From NCBI GenBank assembly GCA_951813285.1, contig OX638355.1:2373136-2437135 (forward strand): a DNA stretch of 64,000 nt, given 5' to 3'. The DNA is from Terriglobia bacterium. Lineage in GTDB: Bacteria; Acidobacteriota; Terriglobia; Versatilivoradales; Versatilivoraceae. Positions 4,035 to 21,710 of the stretch are shown here, in pieces (the first letter of the stretch is position 1; each line of letters starts with the position of its first letter). A program made the position numbers and the translations under genes. The notes below the pieces were generated by a model, which did not search any database, was not told where the DNA came from, and saw only the letters and a program-made list of their open reading frames with translations.

Positions 4035-4130
4035 CATTTGCTGCCGCCGCCTACGCGGCTCGACACCCATAGGCGACGTTTCCCATGGGCTGACGCCCAC
4101 GGCTAAGTGCTGCCGCGGCTACGCCGCTCT
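4035..4130. repeat. Dispersed GC-rich repeat family Q ('cgccgcctacgcggct...gggctgacgcccacggctaagtgctgccgcggctacgccgct'). Other copies at 5855-5945 (+), 6090-6175 (-) and 63855-63950 (-).
   Basis: Four copies recognised by eye. The reverse complement of 6090-6175 aligns almost base-for-base with 4040-4130. Confidence 0.7.
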
Positions 4131-4146: not shown

Positions 4147-5729
4147 GAGTCTGCGCCGCAGAAAACCCATCAGGGCTGAATGATACAATAAGGGGCACAG
4201 AGAGAACATTGGAGGTGGTGGATGGGGATAAGGTTTCGCCCGTATCAACCGAAGCAGCTGTTGATGTTGCCGCCGGACCTGGGGGAGTGGGTAGGGGAAG
4301 GGCACTTGGCCCATCAGGTGAGTGAGTTGGTGGATGGGCTGGAGTTGAGAGCATTTTACAAGCCCTATGAAGAGGACGGGAGGCGCAACTCGCCCTACGA
4401 GCCGCGGATGATGGTGAAGGTGTTGATTTACGCCTATGCGACGGGGGTATTCTCGTCGCGCAAGATCGCCAGGAAGCTGGAGGAAGACGTGGCGTTTCGG
4501 ATGCTGGCGGCGGGGAACTTTCCGCAGCATCGGACGCTGAGCGAGTTTCGCCGCCGACACTTGAAGGACTTCAAGAAGCTGTTCGTACAGGTGGTGAGCT
4601 TGGCACGGGAGATGGGGATGGTGGGATTGGGGCGTTTGGGGATCGATGGGACGAAAGTGCGGGCGAACGCGAGCCGGCGCAAGGCGATGAGCTATGGTCG
4701 GATGCGGGAGCGGGAGCGGCAACTGAGGGAAGAGATCCATGAGTTGTTGAAGAAGGCGCGGCGGGAGGACAGGGAGGAAGATGAGCGCTACGGGGAAGAC
4801 CGGCGTGGGGACGAGTTGCCGGAGGAGTTGCGTCGGCGGGAAGACCGGCTGGCGGCGATCGAGGCGGCCAAGCAACGGCTGGAGGCGGCGCAGCGAGAGG
4901 CCGACGACGAACGGGGCCGGAAACCGGGGCAAGAGCGGAACCCGAAAGGGGGAAGACCGTACAAGCGGGACTACGGGGAAGTGGAGGAGAAGGCGCAGAG
5001 CAACTTCACCGATCCGGAGAGCCGGATCATGAAGACCAGCACGGAGGGGTTCCAGCAGTGCTACAACGCGCAGGTGGCGGTGGACGGAGAGCAGCAGATC
5101 ATTGTGGCCACCGAGGTAACGGCGCAGGCGAGCGATCAGGGACAGATGATGGGGTTGTTGGAGGAGGTGGAGGAGACCTTCGAGGAGACACCCCAACAGG
5201 TGCTGGCGGATGCGGGCTACTGCAATGAGGGGGACTTGCAGGAACTGGAAGCGAGGGGAGTGGACGGTTACGTGGCGCTGGGGCGTGAGGGGAAGCGGGC
5301 GGTGGACGTCAATCCCGGCCGGTATCCGGCCAGGAGTCGTATGAGGAAGAAGCTGGCGAGTCTGGCCGGTCAGGTAGCCTATGCGCGGCGGAAGTGGATT
5401 GCCGAAGCCCCCCATGGGTGGATCAAGGAGGGGCTGGGATTTCGACGGTTCAGTCTGCGGGGCTTGCAGTCAGTGCAAGGGGAGTGGGACTTGGTGTGTC
5501 TGGCTCTCAACATCAAGAGGATGAGTGCGTTGATGGCGGCCTGAAGCAAGGGATTTCTACCTAATCCAGAGGACCAGGACGGTCCTCAACCTGCCATTCC
5601 GGGAGCCCGCAGGTGGCTTGAGACTCTATCGACGCCAAAGCGGCTCCCAAGCACTCCTTCGAACAGTTCTTCGACAAGATTCTCTCGCTCTCCCACCTTC
5701 CGAAATCGTCCTGCGGCGCAGACTCCTAG
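4147..5729 (+). mobile_element. Insertion sequence (~1.58 kb) with 19-bp perfect terminal inverted repeats 'CTAGGAGTCTGCGCCGCAG', carrying one IS5/IS1182-like DDE transposase gene.
   Basis: Left end at 4147-4166 'ggctaggagtctgcgccgcag'. Right end at 5710-5729 'ctgcggcgcagactcctag' is its exact reverse complement. A single transposase ORF lies between them. Confidence 0.75.
4222..5544 (+). CDS. IS5/IS1182-type (IS4 superfamily) DDE transposase, with an InsH-like N-terminal domain and a DDE C-terminal domain.
   Basis: 440-aa ORF with GGAGGTGG RBS. Motifs 'RKIARKLEEDVAFRMLA' and 'YNAQVAVDGEQQIIVATEV' are typical of IS1182/IS5 transposases. A lysine/arginine/glutamate-rich coiled region sits in the middle. 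Confidence 0.85.
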   Translation: MGIRFRPYQPKQLLMLPPDLGEWVGEGHLAHQVSELVDGLELRAFYKPYEEDGRRNSPYEPRMMVKVLIYAYATGVFSSRKIARKLEEDVAFRMLAAGNFPQHRTLSEFRRRHLKDFKKLFVQVVSLAREMGMVGLGRLGIDGTKVRANASRRKAMSYGRMRERERQLREEIHELLKKARREDREEDERYGEDRRGDELPEELRRREDRLAAIEAAKQRLEAAQREADDERGRKPGQERNPKGGRPYKRDYGEVEEKAQSNFTDPESRIMKTSTEGFQQCYNAQVAVDGEQQIIVATEVTAQASDQGQMMGLLEEVEETFEETPQQVLADAGYCNEGDLQELEARGVDGYVALGREGKRAVDVNPGRYPARSRMRKKLASLAGQVAYARRKWIAEAPHGWIKEGLGFRRFSLRGLQSVQGEWDLVCLALNIKRMSALMAA

Positions 5730-5854: not shown

Positions 5855-6175
5855 GTCGCCGCCTTCGCGGCTAGGGCAGTGCAGGGTCCACACGCCCCCG
5901 GGCTAACGCCCGGGGCTAAGTGCTGGCGCGGCTACGCCGCTTTATAAGGAAGGTCTGTAGGAGGGGTTTCCTCCCCAGACCTGGCTCAACCGCGGCTTCG
6001 CCGCTCTCTCCGAAGTCAAGACATTGCTCGGACGCGGGATGCTTATTTAAATGATTATCTCCCGTGCGTCAGCCCGGGGTTCCAGACAGCCGCCAAGGCG
6101 GCGGCAGCGCTTAGCCGTGGGCGTCAGCCCATGGAATAGGGCAAGTCCCCCCGAGCCGCGTAGGCGGCGACTACA
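5855..6175. repeat. Inverted pair of Q-family repeats (5855-5945 direct, 6090-6175 inverted), forming a MITE-like ~320-bp unit without coding capacity.
   Basis: Two Q copies in opposite orientation 145 bp apart. Confidence 0.55.
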
Positions 6176-6900: not shown

Positions 6901-7014
6901 GGTGCAACAAAAAGGCACACAACAACACATAGAGCAACAAACAGGTTACAAAGCTACACAAAGCCACACGGAGTAGACACTCCTCCTCCATGAGCGCGAA
7001 AGCGCGCCTGGAGG

Positions 7015-7560
7015 CCTTCCCGCAAGGGATCACTGTGGAGGGAGCGACCCCCAAAAGGGGAGGGGAGGTGGTGGATTTTGGCGTGCACCACCTCCCCCTG
7101 CCCGGTGCCGCACCAGCGGTCAAAAAGGGGGGGTCGCTCCCTCCACTTCCTCCCCCTCTCGTGCGGTGCGGCGAGGCGCCGTGCGAGGCGGGGGACACGC
7201 AGGCCGACGCCCTACGGCGCTTTACCGCAGAGGACTCGGGCAATCCGTGCCAACCCGCGTCCAATGCGGATTTCCAAGAATAGCCTCGACCACAACGGCG
7301 AGGGGTGCGCCCTCTGATAGTGCAGATTTGTAATTGTCAAAATCGTGCACCACCTGCCTGCGCCACCCCCCATTTGTAACCGTGTCACCCATACGACGCC
7401 ACGTCCTTGACCCCCAGAGGCGGAAATCGTCAATCATTCCACGACCGTTGGAGGCCGGGTTTTTCTGTTCCCATTGGTCGATCTTCTCCACAATAACATC
7501 GAGGCCGCCATGGCGTTCGACGGCGTCCCGACCGGCATCACCGATCGCCTGCCGGAGCCC
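7015..7560. repeat. Left arm of a large inverted repeat. S-element (7015-7290) plus a partial inverted copy of the 'solo-CRISPR-repeat element' (7300-7560, lacking the CRISPR repeat itself). Right arm at 10920-11445.
   Basis: 7120-7285 equals the reverse complement of 11180-11350 ('caaaaagggggggtcgctc...ctctcgtgcgg...'). RC of 7300-7440 aligns with 11040-11200 ('ggaatgat[c/t]gacg..ttc.gcctctgggggtcaag'). Confidence 0.7.
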
Positions 7561-8296
7561 CACTGCTCGTGTCGCGACCGTTGCCGTGTCTCGGGATGCC
7601 CAAGCCTGGAGAACACGCTTGTTACGGTCGAGATGGTGCTGGTCCCAAGCGACCGCAAATACTTCGACAGTCCGGCTTGCATTGCAACCGGCCGGTTGAG
7701 TATGGTGGGTCTTATCTGTCGAAGAAATCGTCGAAGAAATCGGGAGCGGTACAAGGCCAACTTTCGAGACCATTCCTGATGAGTCCACAGCATGCTTTCG
7801 TAAACGCCCACGCCGTTGTCACTGTCGGGCCGGTAGTGTGCTGTAATATCTGGAATCAGCGCCTACGATGGGTTGCCGAACCTTGATAAGGTGAGGCACC
7901 CACGCGGAGAGTACGTCAAAGGGGCAACGTACACTAATGGCGTAGAGAGCTTCTGGGCGCTGCTGAAGCGGGTATACTACGGGACCTACCACTACTGGAG
8001 CAAGAAGCACCTGCCACGTTAATTGGAGGAATTTAGTCAGAGAAGCAACATGCGTCCACTAAACATCATTGACCAAACGGCTAAGGTGTTCCATGGGATT
8101 GGGGGGTCGGAGTTTGACTTGGAGGGAGTTGGTGGGGCGACTTGAGTACTGATTGTTGTGTGGATAGATCGAAGCTCTGCCAGAATCCTCTCTACGTCTT
8201 TCCACACCCACCAGAAAATCAAGAAAAACAAAACGCTTAGACTGAGACTGATAGGCGAAACAACAATGTCGCAAACAATTCCGGGTTCTTCCTCCA

Positions 8297-8958: not shown

Positions 8959-10445
8959 GAGCCTTTTGCAAAATTCGGAATCGGGCATGACATTGGGCTG
9001 GCAACAGTGATGTTCCGGCGGTGACAACCCAGCTGCAAAGACCCTTTTGAAGGAAAAAGCCCGAATCTGATGGCCGGATGGCCAGCGGTCGCCGGACGCA
9101 GGCACAGCTTACCCGCTCCCGGCCTTGAGGCGGGCGAACCTGCTGTGCGGTTGGGGGTGGCAACCCGGTTTTCAGAGCGTCAGGCGCATCAACTGATCCA
9201 CCGTCAGGGCCAGAATGCCGAACATCAGGTGGCACCTCACCTTGTCGGGGCCGCGAACCCTCACCTGCCTCCCGCCAAACTCCTCCTTGAGCCGTCCGTT
9301 GACCCGCTCCACCGTCGAGCGTTCCCGGTAGCGCCGCGCCTCGGGAGTCACTTGGCCGATACAGCGCCGGGCCAGTGCCTCCCGCTTCCGCTCGGCTTTC
9401 AAGGCAGCTCTTCGGCGGGGGTTGACGTCAATAATCGGCACATGCCCCAGCTTCTCACTGAAGGCCCGGATCTCCGGCGCATCGTAGGCGCTGTCCATCA
9501 AGTCGTAGAGACTCTCGACCCGCCTTGCCGTCAGCGTCGCCAGCGGGATGGCTGCCTGAGAGTCATGCACCGAGGCCGAGGTCAGCAGACAACTGACCGG
9601 AATCCCGCCGTCAATGGCGTCGAGGTGCAGCTTGTAGCCGGTCCAGCTCTCCTGATGCCCCTTGGCGTTGCGCTTGACGCCGATGTCGCAGGCCTTGGGC
9701 AACTCCTTCAACATTTCCTCCAGCGTCATCGACCCCTGCCGCTCCAGCCGGCTCAACCGCTTGGGCCGTCGTTCGCCCTTCGGCGGCCGGCCCCGCCGGC
9801 GCTTCCGCTTGGCCTCCGGGGCAGCCTTGGCCGCTGGCTTTTCCCGTCCCGCAATCGCCGTCGAGTCCCTCGACACATGCCCCGCCAAGTGGCCCTTCAG
9901 CGTCTCCTCCAGCAATGCCTCGTGCAAACGCCCCGGCAGGTCGCTCTCAGCGAATTCCGCAAAGGCCCGCGAGAAGGTCGACTCGCTCGGCACCTCCCAC
10001 GCCCTCTCCCAGCCGCACAGCCGCCGCAGCCTCCCCTCACTCCTCAGCCGCTCCACCAAACCCCGCGTGGTCTCCACCTCCAGCATCGACTTCGCCAGAT
10101 AGGCCCGCGCCAGCACTGCCCGATCCTCCAGCGGCCGGCCACGCCAGCCCCGACTGTAAGGCAGCAACTCCTCCACCCGCACCAACTCCAATACCTGCAC
10201 CAGCCGCTGGTAACGCTCTCCCAGAGGCCCCAAAACCTCCTCCAGCAGGGGAAACAGCTCTCGTTGAAACCGGAACCAGTGTCGTGATAGGGTTTCCCTA
10301 AGGGGCAAGTTCCACCTCCGTTCATCATGTGGTTCAGACACCTTCATGATACAACAGACAGTGGTCTTGCCCCTCCTTCCACCTGCCCTCCTTGATCTTT
10401 CCCCCCGTGAAAATTCCCGCTATCTGCGAATTTTGCAAAAGGCTC
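8959..10445 (-). mobile_element. Insertion sequence (~1.49 kb) with terminal inverted repeats 'GAGCCTTTTGCAAAATTCG', carrying an IS4/IS5-type (DDE_Tnp_1) transposase.
   Basis: TIRs at 8959-8977 and 10427-10445 (reverse complement). The same TIR sequence recurs at 38051, 38332 and 51067. Confidence 0.75.
9172..10347 (-). CDS. DDE transposase (IS4/IS5 superfamily, DDE_Tnp_1-like).
   Basis: 391-aa ORF. C-terminal 'STVERVNGRLKEEFGGRQVRVRGPDKVRCHLMFGILALTVDQL' is typical of IS4/IS5 transposases. It lies between the TIRs. Confidence 0.8.
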   Translation of the reverse strand: MKVSEPHDERRWNLPLRETLSRHWFRFQRELFPLLEEVLGPLGERYQRLVQVLELVRVEELLPYSRGWRGRPLEDRAVLARAYLAKSMLEVETTRGLVERLRSEGRLRRLCGWERAWEVPSESTFSRAFAEFAESDLPGRLHEALLEETLKGHLAGHVSRDSTAIAGREKPAAKAAPEAKRKRRRGRPPKGERRPKRLSRLERQGSMTLEEMLKELPKACDIGVKRNAKGHQESWTGYKLHLDAIDGGIPVSCLLTSASVHDSQAAIPLATLTARRVESLYDLMDSAYDAPEIRAFSEKLGHVPIIDVNPRRRAALKAERKREALARRCIGQVTPEARRYRERSTVERVNGRLKEEFGGRQVRVRGPDKVRCHLMFGILALTVDQLMRLTL

Positions 10446-10977
10446 GCTAATTAGTCAATACGAGTTTTCATTAAGTATCGTACTGGAACAGCGCTAAGTC
10501 AACAGCCGCAAGACAGCTGTCGCTGGCGGCGCCACCGAGACCCTGTGCTCCTGCGGAACCTTGGCACCCGGGAAAACGACTGTACCAATGGCAAAACACG
10601 CACCCTGCAGAAGCAAGCCTTGCGCAAAGTTTTGGTTTACCGCCCTATCTTCGAACGGTACCAGGGGTGGGTAGCCCTGGGCGCCGCTTTCGGTATACTT
10701 CAGGGCTTGCTGAGCGCCAGCGCTAGTTTCGACTACGTCTCCGATTCAACAATGGCAAAAACCCACGCGGCCTTAACCCTTCCTGCTGGAGTCATTGGTT
10801 TTCTAGCGGCGCCGAAGATGGGCGAGATCTACCACGTGCCGCCAAGCACCGGTCGGGCGCAACGCTCCCCGGAGAAACGGAGGCAACGAGAGACCACACC
10901 GGTTCGGGGTCAGAGGACCACGTCGCCAGTAAGGAAACTGATCCGTCTTCAGCCATTCGGGAATACCGGTCACGGTC

Positions 10978-11007
10978 CCGTTCCCCGCAGACGCGGGGAT
11001 GAATCGG
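10978..11007 (+). repeat. Solitary type I-E-like CRISPR repeat 'CCCGTTCCCCGCAGACGCGGGGATGAATCG'. A degenerate repeat-like sequence follows ~32 nt downstream. It is embedded in a ~280-bp repeated element (10920-11200).
   Basis: It matches the I-E repeat architecture (GTTCCCCGC-N4-GCGGGGAT-GAAnCG). The 7-bp palindromic stem is CCCCGCa/GCGGGG. No second repeat lies at ±61 bp. Confidence 0.6.
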
Positions 11008-12106
11008 AGCACAAAACAGGCTCTCCCCATGACGCTGGAATGATCGACGCTTTCTGCCTCTGGGGGTCAAGCAGATGCCGTCAGATGGGTGTCACTCTTT
11101 CAGAAGGGGGGGTGACATGGAAGGGTGACATGATTTTGACAACCACAACGCTTATCTCTCAGAGGGCGGAGCCCACGCCACTGTGGTCGGGACTTTCCCG
11201 AAATGCCGCATCAGACGCGGGACGACACGGATTCCTCGCGACCGTTGCGGAAAAGCAAAGCGAGGCTGCGCCTCGCGTGTCCCCCTCGCCCAGCGCAACG
11301 GCGCGCCGCACGAGAGGGGTGCTGGTGGTGAGAGCGACCCCCCCTTTTTGGCCGCTGGTGCGGCACGGGGGAGGGAAAAGGGTGACAGGGAAAACGACAC
11401 CCTTTCCCCCCCTTGCGGGGAGGTCGCTCTCACCACAGTGATCCCTGCGGACTTTATCTGCCATTGATGTAACGCACTTTATACAAAGGACTTATGGATT
11501 TCAAGACGGTGTCCTGCCCCACATTATGCCCCTAGAAAAAAACGGATTCCCCTGGCTCTTCTTGGCCGTATAGGGAGTAACGGTTCGGTCAGGCAGTGAT
11601 GGCTTGGACCCGGACGAGGTTGGAGGTGCCTGCAATCGCAGGCGATCCGCCGGTTCTGCTCGCTACGCCTCCCCCGGACGGCGGATAGACTCCACGGGTT
11701 GGCCGAACAGTTACTTGCGGACACCTCAGTTGAGTATCAACCCTGAGTCTCGGAGTCTGGATCCGTCAAGAGGATCCGCCAAGTGGATCCTGAGCCCGCC
11801 ATGCGATATCCATAGCCAATGCAGTGCCAGCGGTTCGGTCCATACTATTTTTGATCACCGGCCCTTCCTACCACCTACGGACCCGCGGCGCGCTACGGTC
11901 GCCTTATCGGTTCCCTTCGCGCCCCTAGGTCCCCCGTTTCTTCCTCTGGACATAGCGTGATCCTCCCGTCCGATAGCTTCTGCTATAGTTTTTCAAATCA
12001 CTGTCCGAAGAAATCGTGGGGCAGGGAAATCTTTCAAATACAATCTGGATATTCCATCAGTTAATGGAATATCTGTGCTTAAATGGGACCTCTCAAAACA
12101 TCTGTC

Positions 12107-12158
12107 TATTCTGACTCTTAATCAGCAGGTTCGGAGTTCGATTCCCTGGCGGCTCACT
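12107..12158 (+). pseudogene. 3' fragment of a tRNA-Lys(CUU)-like gene (anticodon arm, T-arm, acceptor 3' strand). The 5' half is absent. Probable integration-site (att) remnant.
   Basis: Anticodon stem-loop ctga/cTCTTaa/tcag gives anticodon CTT. T-loop is TTCGATT. No complementary acceptor 5' strand or D-arm lies upstream. Confidence 0.5.
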
Positions 12159-12189
12159 ACCATCCTTTAATGCGAACGGAGAGTCGTAT

Positions 12190-15100
12190 ATGAAATCTAT
12201 GTTTGTCCAGGCTGTCGGGCTCTTCGAGGCCGCTCGGACCGAGGCTGACGTGCGTGACAAACTGAAGCTACTCGAGCAGGCAGAAGCCGTCTTCCAGAAA
12301 ATCATTGATCGAAATCCGTCCGCCGACCGTACGGTCACCGAGAGTGAGGCCGCCCGATCAGCTTATGTCTCTGTCATCTCGCAAGCGCTTGTTATTGCAC
12401 AGACGATCATTGACGAGGGAGTGTTCGAGAAGAACGAGAAAGGTGTTCAGGTGCTGGTGGGTATTGCCGAGGCACAAGCACGGTCGGGAGACGACATTGG
12501 TTCTCAAGAGAGTCTCTCCAATGCACTCGCCGTAGCGCGAACCATCAGCAATGGACCCCGATTGCTGGCGGACATTGCAGAAGCGCAAGCACGGTCTGGC
12601 GACCGTGTCAGTGCTCTGGAGAACTTCGCCCAAGCGGTTGTGTTGGCGCAGGCAAGAGGAGAGAAAAGGGAGGAATTTTCGAAGGAATCAGGCATCAACG
12701 GAAGTTATAGAGAGGACTACGTCAACCAACTGGCTTACATTGCCGAGGCGCAGGCACGGTTGGGGGATCGCACTTGTGCCCAAGAGAGTTTCTCGAAGGC
12801 ATTCGGGGTGTTGCAAACGATCACTTCGGAGTCGGAACGGATCAAGCTGCTGGCTCAAATCACCGCGGCACAAAACCGAGCGCTGCTGCACGTCGGTGAA
12901 GAGGACGGCAATGTCCAGGCGGTCGTGGCGGCGCGAACGATCACCAACGAATGGCGGAAGGCCGCAATACTGGGTCCAATGTGGTTGAATCCGTTTAGTC
13001 GAGGTTCACAAAATGACGACATCGAGGCTAACAAACAAATCCTTGCATTGATGGGCGTGGCCGCAAAGCAACGAGCGCAGACCAGGGACATAATGGAGGC
13101 GCTTGAGCGAATGAGTGCCGACAAATGGGAACGGGTCCGGGTGCTTGGGGCCATTGGCGAGGGACAAGCTCGGGCGGGGAACCACACTGCCGCCAAAGAG
13201 AGCTTTTCCCAAGCATATACAGTCGCACGAAGGCTCACGCATAGAGGGTGGTTATGGTTCCTGACGATCGGCGTCTTCCTGGCGAAGTTGATGATCATCA
13301 AGATACTCCGATACGAAGGGTGGGAGGCTCGAACGTTAGCGGAAATTTCTGAGGTTCAAGCCCAGTCACTGGTTCGCCTTGTCGGCGCAGAAGCCGAGTC
13401 CGGTGACATTCCACGTATGCCAGCTGTCGAGCAAACGATTAGACACGACAGAGGGTGGCGTGCCTGTGCGATAACTCGCAACCTGCAGAGTATGGTTGTT
13501 GGCTCCAAGGAGTTCTCCGACAGAGAGGGGAAAGCCGGGGCAATGGCCGATCTATCTTTAGCGCAGGTTCGGGCGGGGGATCTGTCGGGCGCACAAGAAA
13601 CCATTACCTATGCGCTGAAGCTGGCACGAAGGATTCGTAACGAAGGCAAGCGGGCCTGGGTTCTCGGCCGAATCGCCGAGGGACAGGCTCGGGCGGGGGA
13701 TCTGTCGGGAGCACGAGACACCACCCAGCAAGCGCTGGCCCTTGCGCAGCTGATAAGCATTCAGAAACTACGGGCGGGTATGTTCGTCGTTATCATCAAG
13801 GCGCGTATTGAGGCGGGGGATTTTGAGCAGGCGGTCGAGATTGCTTCAACAATCGATGATCAAGACATGCGGGATGGGGCGCTGGCGGAAGTCGCCAAGA
13901 CACAAGCCGAGACTGGGGATATCGCACAGGCACTTGAGGTCGCCCGTACGATTGACAGTGAAGATGTTCGGGATGGCGTGTTGGCTGAAATCGCCAAGGT
14001 ACAAGCCCAAGCCGGTGCCATTGCGCAGGCGTTTACACTTACGAAGACAATCACCGACAAGGAACAAAAGATCCGAGGTCTGTCGGCCGTTGCTGAGGAA
14101 TTGGCCAAGTTGGATAACACTACGGACCTAAGGGAACTCACCCAACCACTTGCCGCCAAGGAGCAGCAGGTTGGGAGGCTAGCCATTTTGGCAACTGGTC
14201 TCGCGGCTGCTTGGTCGACTTATGAGTGTGTCATCGACCAGGCGCTCACGCTAGTGCTTAAAGGGCTTGAGTCAAGTTTCCATGCAAAGGATTACGTCAC
14301 ATGCTTGGTCGATATCGCCAAGCTCCAGGCCCAAGCGGGCGACTTCACCGGAGCTCGGAAGAGTTTCTCCCAAGCATTCACTGCGGCGCAGGCTCTCCCC
14401 GAAGAGGACCACTATGAAGGATGGAGTCGCCGTGGACTGCTCTGCGACATCGCCAAAGAACAGGCCGGTGCCGGAAACGTAGAGCAGGCCCTGGCGCTGG
14501 TGCAGATGGTCACCCCTCAAGAGGAACGAGTCAGACCGATGATCGACATCGCCAAGGAGCAAGCCGAGGCAGGGGATCGCACAGGTGCTCAAGAGACTCT
14601 TTCGCAAGCGCAAGAGCTCGCCCAAACGATCACCCACCAACGGTACCGGGACTGGGTACTGGCCAATGTTGCCGAGACGCAAGCCGCGACAGGGGGCATT
14701 GCACAGTCGCAGACGGTCGGCCGAACGATCACCGACGAAAACAGTCGGAACCGCGTGCTGGCAAATGTCGCTGTAGCCCAAGCCAAGGCTCAAGTCCGGA
14801 AGGGTGACCGCGCCGGTGCCCGGGAGATCTTCTCGCAAGTGGTCGCGGAAGCGCAGAAGCTCCCAGAGATGGACGATTATGGGAAGAGTCGCTACGAGGT
14901 GCTCGGCGACATCGCCAAAGAACAGGCCCGCACCGGGGACGTAGAACAGGCCCTGGCAGTGGCGCAGACGATCACCATTGTAAACAGAAGGGACTGGGTA
15001 CTGGCCGACATTGCCGAGACGCAAGCCGCGACAGGGGGCATTGCGCAAGCGCAGACGGTCGGCCGAACGATCACCGACGAAAACAGTCGGAACCGCGTGC

Positions 15101-15735
15101 GGGTAAATGTCGCTGTAGCCCAAGCCAAGGCTCAAGCCCGGAAGGGTGACCGCGCCGGTGCCCAGGAGATCTTCTCGCAAGCGGTCGCGGAAGCGCAGAA
15201 GCTCCCAGAGTTGGATATTGGAGTAGGGGCTCGCAATGGTGCATTGGCCGACATTGCCAACGCGCAAGCCGAGACGGGGGGCGTTGAGCTGGCGGTCGAT
15301 GTCGCACAGACGATTACCGACAAGGAATTCGGCGAGTGCGTATTGGCTGACATTGCCAACGCGCAAGCTAGAACAGGGGGTATTGCACGAGCGCAGAAGG
15401 TTGCGCAGATGATCACCGACGAAGACAGTCGAAACTGGGTGCTGGCGAACATCGCTGTGGCCGAAGCTAAGGGATACGCACAGACAGGAGATCGCACCAG
15501 GGCTCGAAGGAGTGTCTCCCAAGCGGTCACACTGGCAGAGAGAGTCGCCGATAGGGTGGTCCAGGACTCACTACGGGCGAGAATCGCCCAGGCGCAAGCG
15601 GAAACAAGAGACTTTGCACATGCGTTCGCGCTCGCACAGATGATAGACAGCGATAGGACAAAATCCTTTGTGCTGGCGGCTATTGCCAAGGAACAACTAA
15701 TAAACTCAGGACTGCAAGTCAGGACTGCAAGTTAG
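12190..15735 (+). CDS. Giant (1181 aa) tandem-repeat protein (~36-40-aa alpha-helical repeats with the pattern '..R..VLA.IA.AQA..GD...A.E.FSQA...A..I..'), TPR/HEAT-like alpha-solenoid with no signal peptide.
   Basis: The repeat is visible throughout the translation. GGAG RBS lies 8 nt upstream. A near-identical internal duplication is present (14640-14840 versus 14995-15190). Confidence 0.7.
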   Translation: MKSMFVQAVGLFEAARTEADVRDKLKLLEQAEAVFQKIIDRNPSADRTVTESEAARSAYVSVISQALVIAQTIIDEGVFEKNEKGVQVLVGIAEAQARSGDDIGSQESLSNALAVARTISNGPRLLADIAEAQARSGDRVSALENFAQAVVLAQARGEKREEFSKESGINGSYREDYVNQLAYIAEAQARLGDRTCAQESFSKAFGVLQTITSESERIKLLAQITAAQNRALLHVGEEDGNVQAVVAARTITNEWRKAAILGPMWLNPFSRGSQNDDIEANKQILALMGVAAKQRAQTRDIMEALERMSADKWERVRVLGAIGEGQARAGNHTAAKESFSQAYTVARRLTHRGWLWFLTIGVFLAKLMIIKILRYEGWEARTLAEISEVQAQSLVRLVGAEAESGDIPRMPAVEQTIRHDRGWRACAITRNLQSMVVGSKEFSDREGKAGAMADLSLAQVRAGDLSGAQETITYALKLARRIRNEGKRAWVLGRIAEGQARAGDLSGARDTTQQALALAQLISIQKLRAGMFVVIIKARIEAGDFEQAVEIASTIDDQDMRDGALAEVAKTQAETGDIAQALEVARTIDSEDVRDGVLAEIAKVQAQAGAIAQAFTLTKTITDKEQKIRGLSAVAEELAKLDNTTDLRELTQPLAAKEQQVGRLAILATGLAAAWSTYECVIDQALTLVLKGLESSFHAKDYVTCLVDIAKLQAQAGDFTGARKSFSQAFTAAQALPEEDHYEGWSRRGLLCDIAKEQAGAGNVEQALALVQMVTPQEERVRPMIDIAKEQAEAGDRTGAQETLSQAQELAQTITHQRYRDWVLANVAETQAATGGIAQSQTVGRTITDENSRNRVLANVAVAQAKAQVRKGDRAGAREIFSQVVAEAQKLPEMDDYGKSRYEVLGDIAKEQARTGDVEQALAVAQTITIVNRRDWVLADIAETQAATGGIAQAQTVGRTITDENSRNRVRVNVAVAQAKAQARKGDRAGAQEIFSQAVAEAQKLPELDIGVGARNGALADIANAQAETGGVELAVDVAQTITDKEFGECVLADIANAQARTGGIARAQKVAQMITDEDSRNWVLANIAVAEAKGYAQTGDRTRARRSVSQAVTLAERVADRVVQDSLRARIAQAQAETRDFAHAFALAQMIDSDRTKSFVLAAIAKEQLINSGLQVRTAS

Positions 15736-16744
15736 GTAAGCAAGGCTGCGACAACGAGCGGCTGTCAATCATTTGGGTTCGTAGTGCTGGATATTAACCT
15801 CATTTCCCAAGGGCACGCATGTGTAAAGCATTGAATCAAGTCTAGCAGGGCGACCTCTCCAGGGGCCGGCCAGGGCAAGAGGCAGGTCATGCTGCTCGGG
15901 AAATTTAGGCGTTCGTTGAAAAGCAGAAACGACTCGCAAATCTGGATTGCAAACGCACGAGACCGCCAGCACATTCTGAAAATCTTAAAAGCTGTTCCGA
16001 AAAACTTCGAGCGAACAGATCCCCCTTATGCTGTTGTAGCGGCAGACGGTACAGTAGTAACCATTGGATATTGGACGCGAAAAATTCACCGTCGTTGAAA
16101 GGAGCCAGCGGTTATGTGTGGCAATGCCTATCCAACGGAGCGAGGCCGGAATTGACCCGTGCTCATTGACCGAGTTTTCGGGTGCGGACCAAGAGGTGGT
16201 CGGCGGGCTGCTGGACGACCTCGGTGCCGGTCGCGGATCAGGATTTGCCGCTTCTGTCCCGGACGGTGATGGTGAGGCCAGCGAGGTTCTAAGCCAAGGC
16301 ATTGGGATTGGTACCTGCATGGAAGCGTGCCCAGAAGCCATCGCGGAAGCGCGCAGACCTCAAGCCTTCGAGGGGAGCAGATGCTGGCAGTGGGGTGGCG
16401 GCGATGGCCTTGGATCTGCACTTCCTGGACCGTCCTGGTGGAGGCTTGAGTTCTGGGTAGCGGGCGACAAAGGGGAACCTCCCAGGAAGTGACCTTCCTC
16501 CGGCGAGCCATCGGTGATGCCGATCGGGACACCGTCGAACGCCATGGCGCGGCCTTGATCCAGTAACGGGGAAGACCCTCCAGTCGGAGGTGGAAAGGGT
16601 GGCCTCGGCCGTGGCAGGATTGATCGACGATTTCCGCCTCTGGAGGTCAGGGCGGTGTAGAAAGACCAACGCGCCGCCCGCAACCATGGCGACCAGTCCA
16701 CACCCCTTCGACCACCCTCCGAGGGTGTGATAGCATCCTTGACC

Positions 16745-17500
16745 ATGACAAACGACAGCGCCCTGTTTCCGGTCGTCTCCGAAAGATGGGGCTTCGGCAT
16801 GTCGCCTCCAAAGCCAGCAGTCCAAGAGAGTCGCCGCGCCGCGTCTGAGTGTACTCTACGGATCTTGGAACACAAGAGTACGGCACCCAACGTTGATCCT
16901 CTAGTGATGGAATCCCTGAGTGTAGTCAAGGGCTTGTTCAATAGGATCGTGCGAGAGGATCAGTGGGATTGGTTTACCGTTGCCGGCCAACTCGGATATC
17001 CGTCTCGACGGATATCGCGCGTTATCGCTCAGGAGCTTTCTCATCTCCGTACTGCCATCAAATTGGGACACAAGACGACATACGAGACAACGAAAACCAA
17101 CCTACGTCGTCTTCCAAGCCGGCGTTGTCTCTCTGTACTTCTCGGAACAGCTAAGATAGTGGATGAACCTGGTGCTGGTTGGATCTACATTCTGTCGACG
17201 CGCGAAATGCGGAACCTCTTGAAAGTTGGGATGACAACTCGTTCAGTAGAGGAACGGGTCAAGGAGATCAACGCTGCAACAGGCGTAGCGATACCGTTTG
17301 GCGTAAGGCGATGCTGGAGGGTGTCCGACCCTTCTCTTGCGGAAGGGCTGGTCCACGACGCCCTGAGGGAGCATCGGCTGCGACAGGACCGAGAGTTCTT
17401 TCAAGTGTCATTCAAATACGCAGGCAAAGTCGTAGACGCTGTGATTCGCGAGAGTTCGCAGGAAATACGGACACTCGACGCCTTGGCCGGATTGGCATAG
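16745..17500 (+). CDS. T5orf172-domain (GIY-YIG-like) protein with an N-terminal domain of unknown function.
   Basis: C-terminal 'GWIYILSTREMRNLLKVGMTTRSVEERVKEINAATGVAIPFGV...REFFQV' fits the T5orf172/MUG113 family. ATG at 16745; the track ORF starts at GTG 16727. Confidence 0.7.
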   Translation: MTNDSALFPVVSERWGFGMSPPKPAVQESRRAASECTLRILEHKSTAPNVDPLVMESLSVVKGLFNRIVREDQWDWFTVAGQLGYPSRRISRVIAQELSHLRTAIKLGHKTTYETTKTNLRRLPSRRCLSVLLGTAKIVDEPGAGWIYILSTREMRNLLKVGMTTRSVEERVKEINAATGVAIPFGVRRCWRVSDPSLAEGLVHDALREHRLRQDREFFQVSFKYAGKVVDAVIRESSQEIRTLDALAGLA

Positions 17501-17654
17501 AGAATTAAGAGTGCAGGTTGGAACGAATACTTACTTATGTCGTCGCTTGTCTCGACAGCGAACACTACGACCGTTGGGCGTTGCTTGGCGATGAGGTCTT
17601 GACGTGACTGTTCAAAATTAAAAGGCACGGACGGGGTCTGCCGGCTGTGCCGTC

Positions 17655-18275
17655 CTAGTAAACGATAAGGCCGCGCGCGCCGCGTGAGAAGTGCGTTGTC
17701 ATATCCCAGAATCTGCCAAAGGTGTCTAGCTCCGAATAGGTCACTCCGTCCATACCGGGAAAACTGTTTGTTGCGAATTGACCCATTTGGATAAGTGGCG
17801 CTTCAACGGGGTCAGAAAGAATAGTCACGCTTTGGGGAAGAACATAGGCATTGTGCTGGCGATTTCGCCGGATTGTGCCGTCCTTCTTTGTCGGCGCGGG
17901 CAGTGTAGGTAGGCCTGAGACGTCGAGGAGCCAGGTCTCTTTCAATAGATTCGTGGATCTCCTCAGTTCCTGCGTATTACCAACTAGGGGAAAGGCATAA
18001 AACACTGAGCGCATTGCACCTCCTGCTAGGCCGCGCAAGGCGAGCAGTTGGTCATGGTCTAGCTGGAACTTGCGCTCTCCGCTCCGGAGACGATGGTTCG
18101 ATGCTTTAAACTGAAAAAGGAGAAGCCTACCGCCGAGCTTCGCACAGGTATCGAATCCCATGCGTGCTTCCTGACGCTGTGTTAGCCCAAACCAGATCAA
18201 ACGCGCACGTGGAAACACGGCGGTGTGCACCTGCGCGCAGATATTGAGTTCAAGTGTCTTTTCCGAAAGCTTCAT
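17655..18275 (-). CDS. Hypothetical protein, possible PD-(D/E)xK nuclease fold (motif 'GFD...LFQFK'), convergent with the T5orf172 gene.
   Basis: 206-aa ORF in lower-GC DNA. The fold assignment rests on the motif only. Confidence 0.4.
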   Translation of the reverse strand: MKLSEKTLELNICAQVHTAVFPRARLIWFGLTQRQEARMGFDTCAKLGGRLLLFQFKASNHRLRSGERKFQLDHDQLLALRGLAGGAMRSVFYAFPLVGNTQELRRSTNLLKETWLLDVSGLPTLPAPTKKDGTIRRNRQHNAYVLPQSVTILSDPVEAPLIQMGQFATNSFPGMDGVTYSELDTFGRFWDMTTHFSRGARGLIVY

Positions 18276-18514
18276 TCCCTAGACCCGCGATTCTGCTCCA
18301 CCCAGCTTACCGCTGCGATCTGCTGTTTCATCGCTCTAGCTGTGTTGTTCGCGCTTTGTGTAGGCTGGATTGATCCTTCCTTGCCTGCCTCGCTTGTTTC
18401 GATTGTCGTTGCCAGAACGTCCTCCTTCTCCACCTGGTTCCGCTTGGGGATGTCGTCTGTCATATGGCGCACGCTAACGGCTTTTTTTTATCAGGACGGC
18501 GTCCCGCGCTTCAC

Positions 18515-18895
18515 CTAGCTGTTCAAGTGAATACGGAAATAGGTCATACTCCGAATCGGTATGCCATCCTTCTCGTACCTTCCGAACGACCACCTGTCGG
18601 AATGATTCATCGCCGCCTCCCAGACGAACAACCCGAAGCAGAGCCCGGCAGCGACCGTGTCGTACTGGCATGCGTTTGCGTAGACCGGCTCCCAGACCGT
18701 ACCCGTCCAGTCACTCCCCGGCATCCAGCCAGCCGTGTGAATTTCGTCACCCGCTATCATGCGTTGAAGCTCGATACGGATCGTCCGCAACTGGATAGGA
18801 GAAAGTCGCGAACACCATGCGTCAAACTCGGACTGATGGGGGATGTGTGTGATCTTGTGGTGTTCGCCGTGATTGTCGATCGAATAGAGTGCCAT
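18515..18895 (-). CDS. Hypothetical small protein (126 aa), same strand and operon-like spacing with 17655-18275.
   Basis: ORF only; no recognisable motif. Confidence 0.3.
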   Translation of the reverse strand: MALYSIDNHGEHHKITHIPHQSEFDAWCSRLSPIQLRTIRIELQRMIAGDEIHTAGWMPGSDWTGTVWEPVYANACQYDTVAAGLCFGLFVWEAAMNHSDRWSFGRYEKDGIPIRSMTYFRIHLNS

Positions 18896-19194
18896 CGTCT
18901 GAGGTTATAATAGGAATCAGCGGTGGTGCCCGTGCTCTACAGACACACCCATCTTAGATCAACAACCGTCTTGGAATCCACCGACACCCTTGTTGCGAGC
19001 CACCTTCGTCCGCACCTACGCCTGGATGGCCCTGACACTGCCTCAGACAAGCCGAGCGCGGAGCACTCGAATTGCCCGGGAATCGTCTTGGAACGACGGC
19101 TCCGCCAATACAATGACGGTGAGGTCTTATATGATGCCCTCATCAGGAACATGCTTCGCGGTCACCGTTCCATGCGGGGTGTGATCAATTCCGC

Positions 19195-19345
19195 GCCGTC
19201 GGCCTCAGGTAACACGCCCAATCGTCCATCAGGACATGCTGGCGCTTGAACAGGTCCGAGCAGGCATAGGCCGCGTCGACCTGGTTCCGGACTGCATGCG
19301 CCTGGACCGCCTCGATCACCTCCCGGAGATGGTCTGTCTTCAGCC
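19195..19345 (-). pseudogene. Orphan 3' fragment of a tyrosine-integrase gene, encoding '...IPEWLKTDHLREVIEAVQAHAVRNQVDAAYACSDLFKRQHVLMDDWACYL', directly abutting a solo CRISPR-repeat element.
   Basis: About 75% nucleotide identity to the 3' end of the integrase gene at 20517-20650. The translation matches the integrase C-terminus 'DHPREVIEAALAHVVRNRVEAAYARSDLFERRRVLMDDWARYL'. Confidence 0.65.
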
Positions 19346-19367
19346 ATTCGGGAATAGTGGTCACGGT

Positions 19368-19397
19368 CCTGTTCCCCGCAGACCCGGGGATGAACCG
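19368..19397 (+). repeat. Second solitary type I-E-like CRISPR repeat 'CCTGTTCCCCGCAGACCCGGGGATGAACCG', within repeat-element copy 2 (19320-19600).
   Basis: Same architecture as 10978-11007, with the compensatory pair substitution g/c giving CCCCGCa/GACCCGGGG. The flanks are ~80% identical to copy 1. Confidence 0.6.
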
Positions 19398-20314
19398 GAG
19401 CAGGAAACAGGCACACCGAATGACTGTTGAATGGTCGACGAATTGCGCCTCTGGGGGTCACGCAGATGCCGTCAGATGGGTCGCCACCCTTCCGACGGGG
19501 GGTGGCGGTCTAACATGGCGGCGATCCTGCTACACACAACGCCTTTCTCTCAGAGGGCGAAGCCCCTAGCCGTTGTGGTTGGGGATGCAGGTTGGCGAAG
19601 CCAGCTTCGAGTTTGGAGTCGACGCCCAGCGGCTCAAGAGTCCGGCTTACGGCGGTACGGACCACGGCGCCTTGGCCCGACTCACCGCGAGCTGGTAGCA
19701 GACACGCGAATCCAGTGGCGGCAATGGAACGCGCGACGGCTATGGAAAGTGCCGCCCCTGCTGGAAACCCGGTCTGACTGCGCTCGGGTTCCCGCAACTT
19801 CCCGCAGCCCCGTCGGCGGGTTGACCAGGAACGATGAACCTGCAGGGCGGGTTCCGGTTACCTTGTCAAAGCGATCCTTCAACCTGCTGTGGTTCCCCGG
19901 CCGTCCGGCAACCGGTTGGGAATCCAGTTGGCATGTCTCGATCAAGGCCCCGGCCGATCCGGACAGGGCACTGGCCCGATCGTTGAGGCGTGGGCAACCG
20001 TCTTCAGGCCGGGCGCGTTTCCATGGCCGGCCCATACGGTCCACCGGCATCCGATGTCGTCCATAAGTATCTGAATAATAGTCACTTGACCCCAACCAGG
20101 GCTTTGACTCATCCGATCCCGACTCGATACCATTGCTGAAGTTTCCACAGCCTGGGAGAGGTGGAGGAGGAGGTTGTGAGGGGACCTCACCGTCCGAGAT
20201 CGGGACCCGACATGCGGTCGCGTTCCCCGGAAGAGGAGGGGGCGGATCCAGGCGCGCTTCTTGTTGCGAGACGGGTGCTCAGCCGGAGCACGGCACGCTC
20301 CGTGAGACAGGGGA

Positions 20315-20455: not shown

Positions 20456-21710
20456 TCACCCTGGCCTGCACGGGGCGAAGTCCCGTTGCTGGGCTTGGCG
20501 CGGGCACCCGATCCCTGGGGCCAAGTAACGCGCCCAGTCGTCCATCAGGACACGCCTGCGCTCGAATAGGTCGGAGCGGGCATAGGCCGCCTCGACCCGG
20601 TTGCGGACCACATGCGCCAGGGCCGCCTCGATCACCTCTCGGGGATGGTCGGTCTCCTCGGCCGCCCAGTCCCGAAAGCTGGATCGGAACCCGTGCGGCA
20701 CGGCTGCAATCCCCTGCTCGCGGACCAGCCACCGCAGCTCCTTGTCATTGAGCGGTTTCCCTTGCCCACGGCTGAACACCAGAGGACCGTCGCCGAGGGT
20801 CCGTGCCGCCTCGAGAATCTCCAGGGCGCGTCGGCACAGCGGCACCCGGTGCTGGCGGTTAGCCTTCATCCGCTTGGCCGGGACGGTCCATACACCAGCG
20901 TCTCGATCGATCTCCGCCCACTCGGCCCACCGGACCTCACTCCACCTGGCCTCCGTCAGCACCAGGAACTACGAAGGCCAGCTTGGCCACCTCCGGCGCC
21001 GTCGCTGCCTGCACCGTCCGGATAGCCGCAAGCACCTCCCGATGCGGCAAAGCCTGCATGTGCTCGGTAACGTCCTGTTGGAGACCCAGGACCGGGCCGA
21101 TCCTGTCGCAGGGGTTGTCAATGCGGAACTCCATGGCTACGGCCCATTCCAGGATCGCCCGCAGGCGCTGGCGCACTCGCCGGGCGCTGGACGGCTTCCG
21201 GTGCCAGATGGGGGTGAGGACCTCAAGCACGTCGGCGCTCGTAACCTCAGAGACCGGCATCTTGCCGATGCGCGGGAAGGCGAACCGCCTCAGGCTCGAC
21301 ATCCACTCGCGATGGTGACGCCGGCCGCGCCAGCCGCCCCGCTTCTGCTCCAGCACACGCATGGCGGCTTCGGCGAAGGTGGGGATGCCCTCGGTGCGGC
21401 GTTTCTCGGCAAGGGGATCTCCGCCCTGGCGGGCGAGCTTGCGGTTGGCCAGGGCTTTCTCCCTGGCCTCTGCCAGGGGGACCAAGGCGACGCTGCCGAG
21501 ACCGAGCTCACGGCGACGGCCACGGACGACGAGGCGTTGAATCCAACTGCGGGTTCCGCTGGGTTGGACGAAGAGGTACAATCCGTTTCCATCGGCGTAT
21601 CTTCCGGGCGGAGCGGAGCGCAGGAAGGCGGCCGAAAGGGCGTTGCTGGGGTGGCGGCCGGTGGGCTTGGTCTTAGGTCGGACCGGAGCGAAGTCCGTTA
21701 CAGCATCCAT
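20456..21710 (-). pseudogene. int: P4-type tyrosine integrase (N-terminal DUF4102 arm-binding, SAM-like and catalytic domains), split by a frameshift at ~20955 into ORFs 20937-21710 and 20456-20962.
   Basis: N-terminal 'GLYLFVQPSGTRSWIQR' (DUF4102) and C-terminal 'VPHGFRSSFRDWAAE' (HxxR box). The expected 'FLVLTEARWSEV' reads in the +1 frame immediately after a TAG. Confidence 0.8.

Follow-up and report, generated by a model that had tools for sequence, protein, structure and literature searches.

Two solitary repeats of type I-E, as found in clustered regularly interspaced short palindromic repeat (CRISPR) arrays, are described here from a 64,000-nucleotide stretch of the genome of a Terriglobia bacterium (Acidobacteriota; Versatilivoraceae; assembly GCA_951813285.1, contig OX638355.1, positions 2,373,136 to 2,437,135), which is called the window throughout. 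Both lie in copies of a dispersed element that combines a P4-like integrase gene, a gene here named X and a predicted structured tail, and both are probably the relic of a single capture of one spacer plus one repeat, which spread with the integrase-linked element and is now mostly decaying.

Organization of the locus

The original prediction for this region, made from the letters alone, had placed one type I-E-like repeat at each of two loci, and a search of the window with its pattern returned exactly two matches, 10977-11006 and 19368-19397, both on the plus strand, where shuffled sequences lead one to expect none. Self-comparison revealed four copies of a shared unit, namely A (7557 down to 7020, minus strand), B (10939-11450), C (19330-19583), and D (16498-16652); the repeats belong to B and C, and the expectation that the unit also recurs without a repeat was borne out by A and D. 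The features are listed below, where R denotes the repeat, S a 32-nucleotide (nt) segment preceding it, and core the most conserved 24 nt of the unit.

7014 to 7788, minus strand: copy A, class 1, no repeat; 5′-truncated X open reading frame (ORF) from 7788 to 7222, core at 7431 to 7408, full tail to about 7014; X residues 290-388.
10946 to 10977, plus strand: copy B, segment S, unique and of spacer length (32 nt), TCTTCAGCCATTCGGGAATACCGGTCACGGTC, directly upstream of R.
10978 to 11006, plus strand: copy B, segment R, a 29-nt repeat of type I-E form, CCGTTCCCCGCAGACGCGGGGATGAATCG, with an intact stem of 6 base pairs (bp) and a 23-nt body that is the repeat of arrays with a 61-bp period.
11007 to 11069, plus strand: copy B, final codons of X (..ESEHKTGSPHDAGMIDAFCLWGS), core at 11046-11069; read in the original prediction as a spacer followed by a weak repeat.
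11070 to 11457, plus strand: copy B, structured tail of the X module (about 400 nt), which closes with ..CCACAGTGATCCCTGCGG; more than 40 copies stop sharply at this common end, and paired positions covary.
16498 to 16688, plus strand: copy D, of class 1 and without a repeat; a short 3′ fragment of X with the core at 16626-16649, tail gone past about 16652.
19196 to 19339, minus strand: copy C, displaced P4-like integrase 3′ fragment (..TDHLREVIEAVQAH.., ending YL and a stop), antisense to the repeat; integrase residues 103-149 by tblastn.
19337 to 19368, plus strand: copy C, segment S, with one mismatch to the family consensus.
19369 to 19397, plus strand: copy C, segment R, CTGTTCCCCGCAGACCCGGGGATGAACCG, which matches the repeat of arrays L064 and L065 at 28/29 positions; G>C at 19384 shortens the stem.
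19398 to 19585, plus strand: copy C, X 3′ end and truncated tail, core at 19437-19460.
20456 to 21710, minus strand: P4-like tyrosine integrase (Arm-DNA-bind_3, Phage_int_M and a catalytic C-terminus), in two frames split near 20940-20962.

The catalytic C-terminus of the integrase is encoded in the second frame, and since relatives have one continuous ORF, the gene is probably a pseudogene or carries a sequencing frameshift. No tRNA genes were found in the window.

Identity of the two repeats

Copy B has the form of a type I-E repeat, with 29 nt, the arrangement GTGTTCCCCGC-N4-GCGGGGATGAACCG, a GC stem of 6-7 bp, and an 8-nt 3′ handle, and it folds into the canonical hairpin with a 6-bp stem and a 4-nt loop (-14.5 kcal/mol). 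In the stem of copy C one base is exchanged, G>C at 19384, and the loop-closing pair is thereby lost; a hairpin is still predicted, but with a 5-bp CCCCG/CGGGG stem and a 6-nt loop (-10.3 kcal/mol). As this change stands alone, the earlier claim that a compensatory change keeps the stem intact does not hold. The absence of spacer-repeat periodicity was confirmed, as the window contains neither a periodic array nor any 61-bp periodicity, nor a third copy of the repeat. No partial repeat occurs within 100 bp of R, with the exception of a stretch of about 12 nt resembling a repeat end, 32 nt upstream.

The exact 23-mer body, TTCCCCGCAGACGCGGGGATGAA, was found in 56 metagenome stretches, about 40 of which are arrays of as many as 90 repeats, spaced at a period of 61 bp. 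The repeat of arrays L064 and L065, CTGTTCCCCGCAGACGCGGGGATGAACCG, is the one matched by copy C at 28 of 29 positions, and the L065 array is followed by genes for Cas1, Cas6e, Cas5e, Cas7e, and Cse2, with a Cas6e that clusters with gammaproteobacterial I-E proteins. None of the 56 stretches carries the X core or relatives of the integrase or X. Judged by their sequence, the repeats at 10978-11006 and 19369-19397 are thus genuine type I-E CRISPR repeats, as the original prediction had held.

The same prediction had named a chance likeness within integrase-derived sequence as its refutation, and it is exceedingly improbable that integrase- or X-derived sequence merely happens to resemble a CRISPR repeat. 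The repeat region can be aligned weakly with class-1 X sequence by MAFFT, but real arrays are matched at all 23 nt, the AGAC loop among them, and because of this identity a chance resemblance can be set aside; in addition, neither S nor R is significantly similar to integrase, and no matches are expected at random. An origin of the repeat in integrase coding sequence was considered separately: an antisense frame (..SAGNRTVT..) vaguely recalls the HGFR box, S plus R score no higher than shuffles against about 30 integrase genes, and the identity of R to array repeats rules this origin out. The same I-E repeat also occurs truly solitary in unrelated metagenome contigs (L056, 4199-4227, and L096, at about 1964); one of these lies between genes, downstream of an ordinary gene and with no integrase close by.

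The carrier: an integrase-X-tail module

A degenerate pattern for the core, scanned against one genome per species, retrieved 53 stretches, nearly all from Candidatus Versatilivorator/Versatilivoraceae and related acidobacterial metagenome-assembled genomes (MAGs), with up to 18 per genome; a literature search under the name Versatilivorator found nothing. The frame of the core reads ..MIDDFRLWGS.., the last 20 or so codons of X, and a long open frame upstream of it in eight loci (L003, L020, L024, L025, L030, L044, L049, L051) defines X, a winged-helix protein of about 315 amino acids. Pfam and PHROGs searches with X gave no match, and none of its 475 homologues is named or has Pfam domains. 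Because the core frame is open through full-length X in these eight loci, the weak repeat-like sequence that had been noted about 32 nt downstream of each repeat is the C-terminal coding region of X (DDFRLWGS), present in about 40 copies with no repeat upstream, and the idea of the core as a degenerate repeat was rejected. A small ORF opposite the repeat was likewise rejected, given a conserved in-frame stop in the core and no consistent start.

X lies directly 3′ of the integrase gene in a module of about 2.85 kb that is conserved between copies. This module of P4-like integrase, X, and tail occurs many times per Ca. Versatilivorator MAG, together with many partial copies consisting of the X 3′ part and the tail. 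Two arrangements recur, one in which integrase, X, and tail follow each other in the same direction (L020, L024, L025, L030, L051, L053) and one in which the integrase gene converges on an inverted tail and X 3′ part (L002, L004, L008, L012, L016, L026, L038, L043); no single inversion or integration model fitted both. The carrier of the repeats, a dispersed family of such modules, is a mobile element, and the link of the solitary repeats to integrase fragments and a mobile element, proposed earlier, proved right.

The shared unit had been described as an element of about 280 bp; it is real, but consists of the X 3′ end plus a structured tail of about 400 nt, which ends sharply at ..CCACAGTGATCCCTGCGGGAAGGC in more than 40 copies. 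Structure prediction from about 40 copies (L001-L053, and the window at 11046-11457 on the plus strand and 7431-7014 on the minus strand) yielded 68 pairs, 95.2% of them paired, with a covariation of 0.181 against 0.099 in shuffles (0/500 reach 0.181) and 0.03-0.08 with partners slid. One helix has both-side changes at 7/7 pairs, and invariant G.U pairs are compatible with the X-sense strand only. An Rfam search with the tail gave no match. The tail is a strongly conserved candidate for a structured RNA. Opposite the tail, at 11260-11276 of the minus strand, the sequence GCGAGGCGCAGCCTCGC makes a hairpin that, with the T-rich run after it, resembles a terminator. The stem shows covariation, being AU in 16 copies and GC in 9, and such a hairpin could halt read-through from the integrase gene where the two parts converge. 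In L004, L026, L027, L038, and L039, a small hydrophobic ORF (MLKTPTQVVLLNLALTAAGL..) begins right at the tail end, behind a GGAAGG site resembling a ribosome-binding site; on the other strand, the integrase 3′ region overlaps it.

The class-2 mosaic

Upstream of the core, about 40 copies run on as X coding sequence and form class 1, which includes A and D of the window. Class 2 comprises 14 copies from seven genomes, namely B and C of the window and L006, L010, L014, L015, L018, L019, L022, L027, L033, L039, L040, and L045 from six other genomes. Its members share one order: an antisense integrase 3′ fragment where this is kept, the 32-nt S, R, the X 3′ end, and the tail; in every copy there is one repeat, and it precedes the core by 39 nt. 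A CRISPR array would have at least two regularly spaced repeats with differing spacers; all 14 copies have one repeat per locus and share one common 32-mer, and no Cas homologue occurs in the window or in L001-L053.

S (TCTTCAGCCATTCGGGAATACTGGTCACGGTC) stands directly 5′ of R, with 0-3 mismatches in 12/14 copies and with an indel in L022 and L015. In local alignments against about 30 integrase genes it scores no better than shuffled S, and the best alignments fall off the homologous site. The integrase 3′ fragment upstream of S is kept in about half of the class-2 copies and is elsewhere replaced, with breakpoints 8-33 nt from S. In copy C, the region 19206-19339 (about 134 bp) is an 85% identical copy of the integrase 3′ end at 20522-20655; the pseudo-copy of about 150 bp postulated in the original prediction therefore exists, yet it does not abut the repeat, as S lies between them. 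In L006, L014, L022, L039, and the window, the tail/X/R/S segment is inverted and enclosed by direct repeats of the integrase 3′ end.

The mini-array envisaged earlier had its spacer downstream of the repeat. The 39 nt between R and the core, however, are X coding sequence, and the class-1 copies L023, L034, L052, and L005 have ..AATCGGAGCAAGAAACAGGCTCA.. there without any repeat, so that this supposed spacer is none; it is the 32 nt upstream of R that look like the spacer.

Such a segment could act as a guide. In this proposal, which we consider very unlikely, the mosaic would be a CRISPR RNA (crRNA)-like mini-array of the CreA or crlRNA type directing the host Cascade to a competitor element or a promoter; with equally little likelihood, the integrase-derived ..ATGGTCCG would be a degenerate 5′ handle, S the guide, and R the 3′ hairpin. 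S is indeed exactly 32 nt long and well conserved, it is preceded by GGGGATGGTCCG, which is identical to the repeat 3′ end at 10/12 positions, and followed by a full repeat, and crRNA-like regulators with degenerate repeats are known. Neither full nor seed-length targets of S, however, were found outside the mosaic copies in the window and the 53 related loci, a search space of about 0.5 Mb, or in viral contigs, so that a guide with both a target and a protospacer-adjacent motif did not emerge from this material. The upstream 'repeat' has no hairpin, and Cas6e therefore could not make the 5′ handle; moreover, the integrase-derived upstream part is replaced or truncated in 6/14 copies, and the hairpin of R is decaying.

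Junctions and the capture model

At the left end, integrase homology in class 2 ends at ..GTCT, exactly 32 nt before R. At the corresponding site, the antisense strand of intact integrase genes reads ..CACCTCCCGGGGATG(A/G)TC(C/G)GTCTC.., a motif also written CGGGGATG(A/G)TCCGTCT, which is nearly the 3′ end of the I-E repeat (CGGGGATGAACCG); when the opening bases of S are added to this end (CGGGGATGAACCG+TCT), 13-14/16 positions match. The window integrase likewise has CGGGGATGGTCGGTCT, resembling the repeat 3′ end, on its antisense strand. At the right end, X homology begins within the last five bases of R, where GATGAA/TCGGAGCA in the mosaic faces ..CCAATCGGAGCA in X. S (32 nt) and R (29 nt) together make 61 nt, one repeat period, delimited at corresponding points in the ends of two consecutive repeats.

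These junctions suggest that the S-R unit came from a genuine type I-E array and became trapped in a mosaic module of the multi-copy integrase-associated element. Illegitimate or microhomology-driven recombination, with two joins between the element and the array, probably brought the pieces together a single time, perhaps as a double event or as an integration followed by a deletion. The mosaic so formed would then have travelled with the element to several sites and genomes, either by the element's mobility or by recombination between its many copies. In all 14 copies from seven genomes, S is the same segment and the two junctions agree, which argues for a single origin followed by spread and against an array eroded in situ. 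Of the three earlier readings, the one with an array remnant at an integrase-fragment junction comes closest; the recombination remnant is thereby retained, while erosion in place with successive insertions is not.

A related proposal, to which we give only a slim chance, takes the repeat, or its 3′ end, as a present or former attachment (att) site of the integrase, the copies being att junctions of successive insertions into a CRISPR array or repeat-like sites. Integrase 3′ fragments flank the unit, the integrase gene has its repeat-end-like motif at the junction, and integrase 3′-end direct repeats bracket the inverted segment in the five cases given above, all of which would fit. Because all copies carry the same S, however, they are not independent insertions into an array; the left breakpoints, scattered 8-33 nt upstream of S, are unlike a precise crossover and leave a precise site-specific insertion at this end unsupported; and most element copies, those of class 1, lack any repeat, and array contigs with this repeat lack relatives of the integrase and X. 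The sole integrase beside an array (L100) adjoins a tRNA 3′ fragment, which stands in between, and was accordingly rejected as proof that the repeats are attB sites.

Decay and the question of function

If R served as a Cas6 binding site, its hairpin should be preserved. It is intact (one G.U allowed) in 5/14 class-2 copies and broken in 9/14 by unpaired stem changes, with no compensatory changes at all. Divergence from the family consensus amounts to 2.4% for the core, 3.8% for S, 6.2% for R, and 7.9% for the X-derived 39 nt, and since the value for R is not below those of both flanks, R is not specially protected. A consensus scan detected no sigma-70-like promoter on the plus strand within 250 bp upstream of window copies B and C, and no cas genes were present in the sampled 0.5 Mb; among the best 120 Cas6e homologues, none lay on a contig of Versatilivorator size. 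The lack of a promoter-like site, the nine broken hairpins, the unprotected R, and an S without target together favour a relic, and the unit may by now be largely a passenger.

Several considerations weigh against this. The promoter scan used a crude sigma-70 consensus, and the Cas survey covers the window and the related loci, about 0.5 Mb. Five of the 14 copies, including copy B of the window, keep a perfect or G.U-tolerant hairpin, and some of them may still be bound by Cas6e. S is among the best-conserved segments, which could reflect constraint rather than recent spread. The class-2 copies are not phylogenetically independent, so that counts of decayed copies overstate the number of events. 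Finally, an ancestral intermediate with the element inside an array was not found, as 0/56 array-bearing metagenome stretches hold a homologue of the integrase or X.

The main functional alternative is a decoy. In this account, which we regard as unlikely, R would be an RNA anti-CRISPR (Racr)-like unit protecting the element from the host I-E system; R would be transcribed and cut by Cas6e, whereupon the 8-nt handle with the downstream X/tail RNA would nucleate aberrant Cas5e/Cas7e complexes. R stands alone, is nearly identical to real I-E repeats, and sits in a mobile module with an integrase, and these features are the search criteria for solitary repeat units (SRUs) in PMC10651486; copy B, furthermore, folds as a canonical hairpin, and the stem is kept in five of the 14 copies. 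On the other side stand the missing promoter-like site upstream of either window copy, the nine stems broken without compensation, a repeat no better conserved than its flanks, the lack of matching cas genes in the window or the sampled 0.5 Mb, and the absence of the repeat and core patterns from viral contigs. GC-stem mutants of RacrIF1 were used as loss-of-function controls (PMC10651486).

More broadly, the mosaic might be a working device, in which an S-R-X 3′ end-tail transcript would be cut by host Cas6e at R and give either a Racr-type decoy or an S guide recruiting the I-E Cascade; this, too, seems to us improbable. A Cas6e-type cut would then be expected at ..GCGGGG/AUGAA, with a product ending ..GCGGGG or starting AUGAAUCG.

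Other features of the window

A second IS5-like transposase (9172-10347, minus strand) has its end near 10445, and the 96 nt at 10350-10445 share 99% identity with sites in L012, L018, and L045 (OZ242296.1), which indicates that the source genome is a close relative of the OZ242296.1 MAG. An IS5/DUF772-type transposase ORF at 4222-5544 lies between two matches to the Acido-Lenti-1 RNA motif, at 4083-4128 and 5896-5941 on the plus strand, which score 49 and 44.6 bits, both over the gathering score; this placement suggests that the motif belongs to the ends of the insertion sequence.

Relation to known systems and implications

Displaced 3′ gene fragments mark the island junctions of P4-family integrases, classically at tRNA 3′ ends, and the present locus shares with them a direct duplicate of a gene 3′ end at a recombination junction beside a P4-like integrase; here, however, the duplicated 3′ end is the integrase's own, and what is bracketed is an inverted X/tail piece plus CRISPR-derived DNA. 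In staphylococcal phages, recombination between mobile genetic elements and CRISPR loci via spacer or repeat homology was reportedly observed by Varble and colleagues in 2019. Both cases have short homology between element and array as a route of CRISPR DNA onto the element, but in the present one the microhomology is imperfect, at about 13-16 nt, and the event is deduced from junction sequences.

A further comparison is with the mini-CRISPR arrays borne by mobile genetic elements, such as those of viruses, and with crRNA-like regulators, such as CreA and the crlRNAs (bioRxiv 10.1101/2024.12.27.630466). The likeness lies in the single spacer-length segment, which has a complete repeat at one end and, at the other, a degenerate stretch resembling a repeat end. 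The upstream 'repeat' here differs in being integrase coding sequence of which only the last 12 nt or so are similar, no target of the 32-mer was found in the roughly 0.5 Mb and viral contigs, and the unit is not in or near a cas locus.

The closest likeness is to the SRUs of phages and plasmids, some of which act as Racrs (Camara-Wilpert et al. 2023, PMC10651486): a lone CRISPR repeat, apart from cas genes and other repeats and nearly identical to a real type, on a mobile genetic element. Unlike those units, the present one is carried by a chromosomal multi-copy integrase module rather than a virus or plasmid, has no promoter-like site upstream and a hairpin broken in most copies, and travels with a spacer-length segment. 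The mosaic is best filed as a further member of this known class, with unusually legible junctions and signs of decay.

To our knowledge, the route by which solitary CRISPR repeats reach mobile elements is mostly a matter of conjecture. Here both capture junctions can be read, the spacer-length segment and repeat being bounded by mimics of the repeat 3′ end, one of them inside the element's integrase gene, and this legibility gives a concrete, testable picture of the transfer of array DNA to an element. Such units can persist and multiply as passengers, which calls for caution in surveys that score every solitary repeat as an anti-CRISPR candidate. Were the mosaic a working device after all, it would be the first described case, on a chromosomal integrase element of the Acidobacteriota, of an RNA that counters or hijacks CRISPR, and it would be physically joined to a large structured RNA with covariation. 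Beyond the original question, what had been taken for a 280-bp element proves to comprise the end of a gene without annotation and a large candidate structured RNA missing from Rfam, and this tail and the integrase-X module may be more novel than the repeats themselves.

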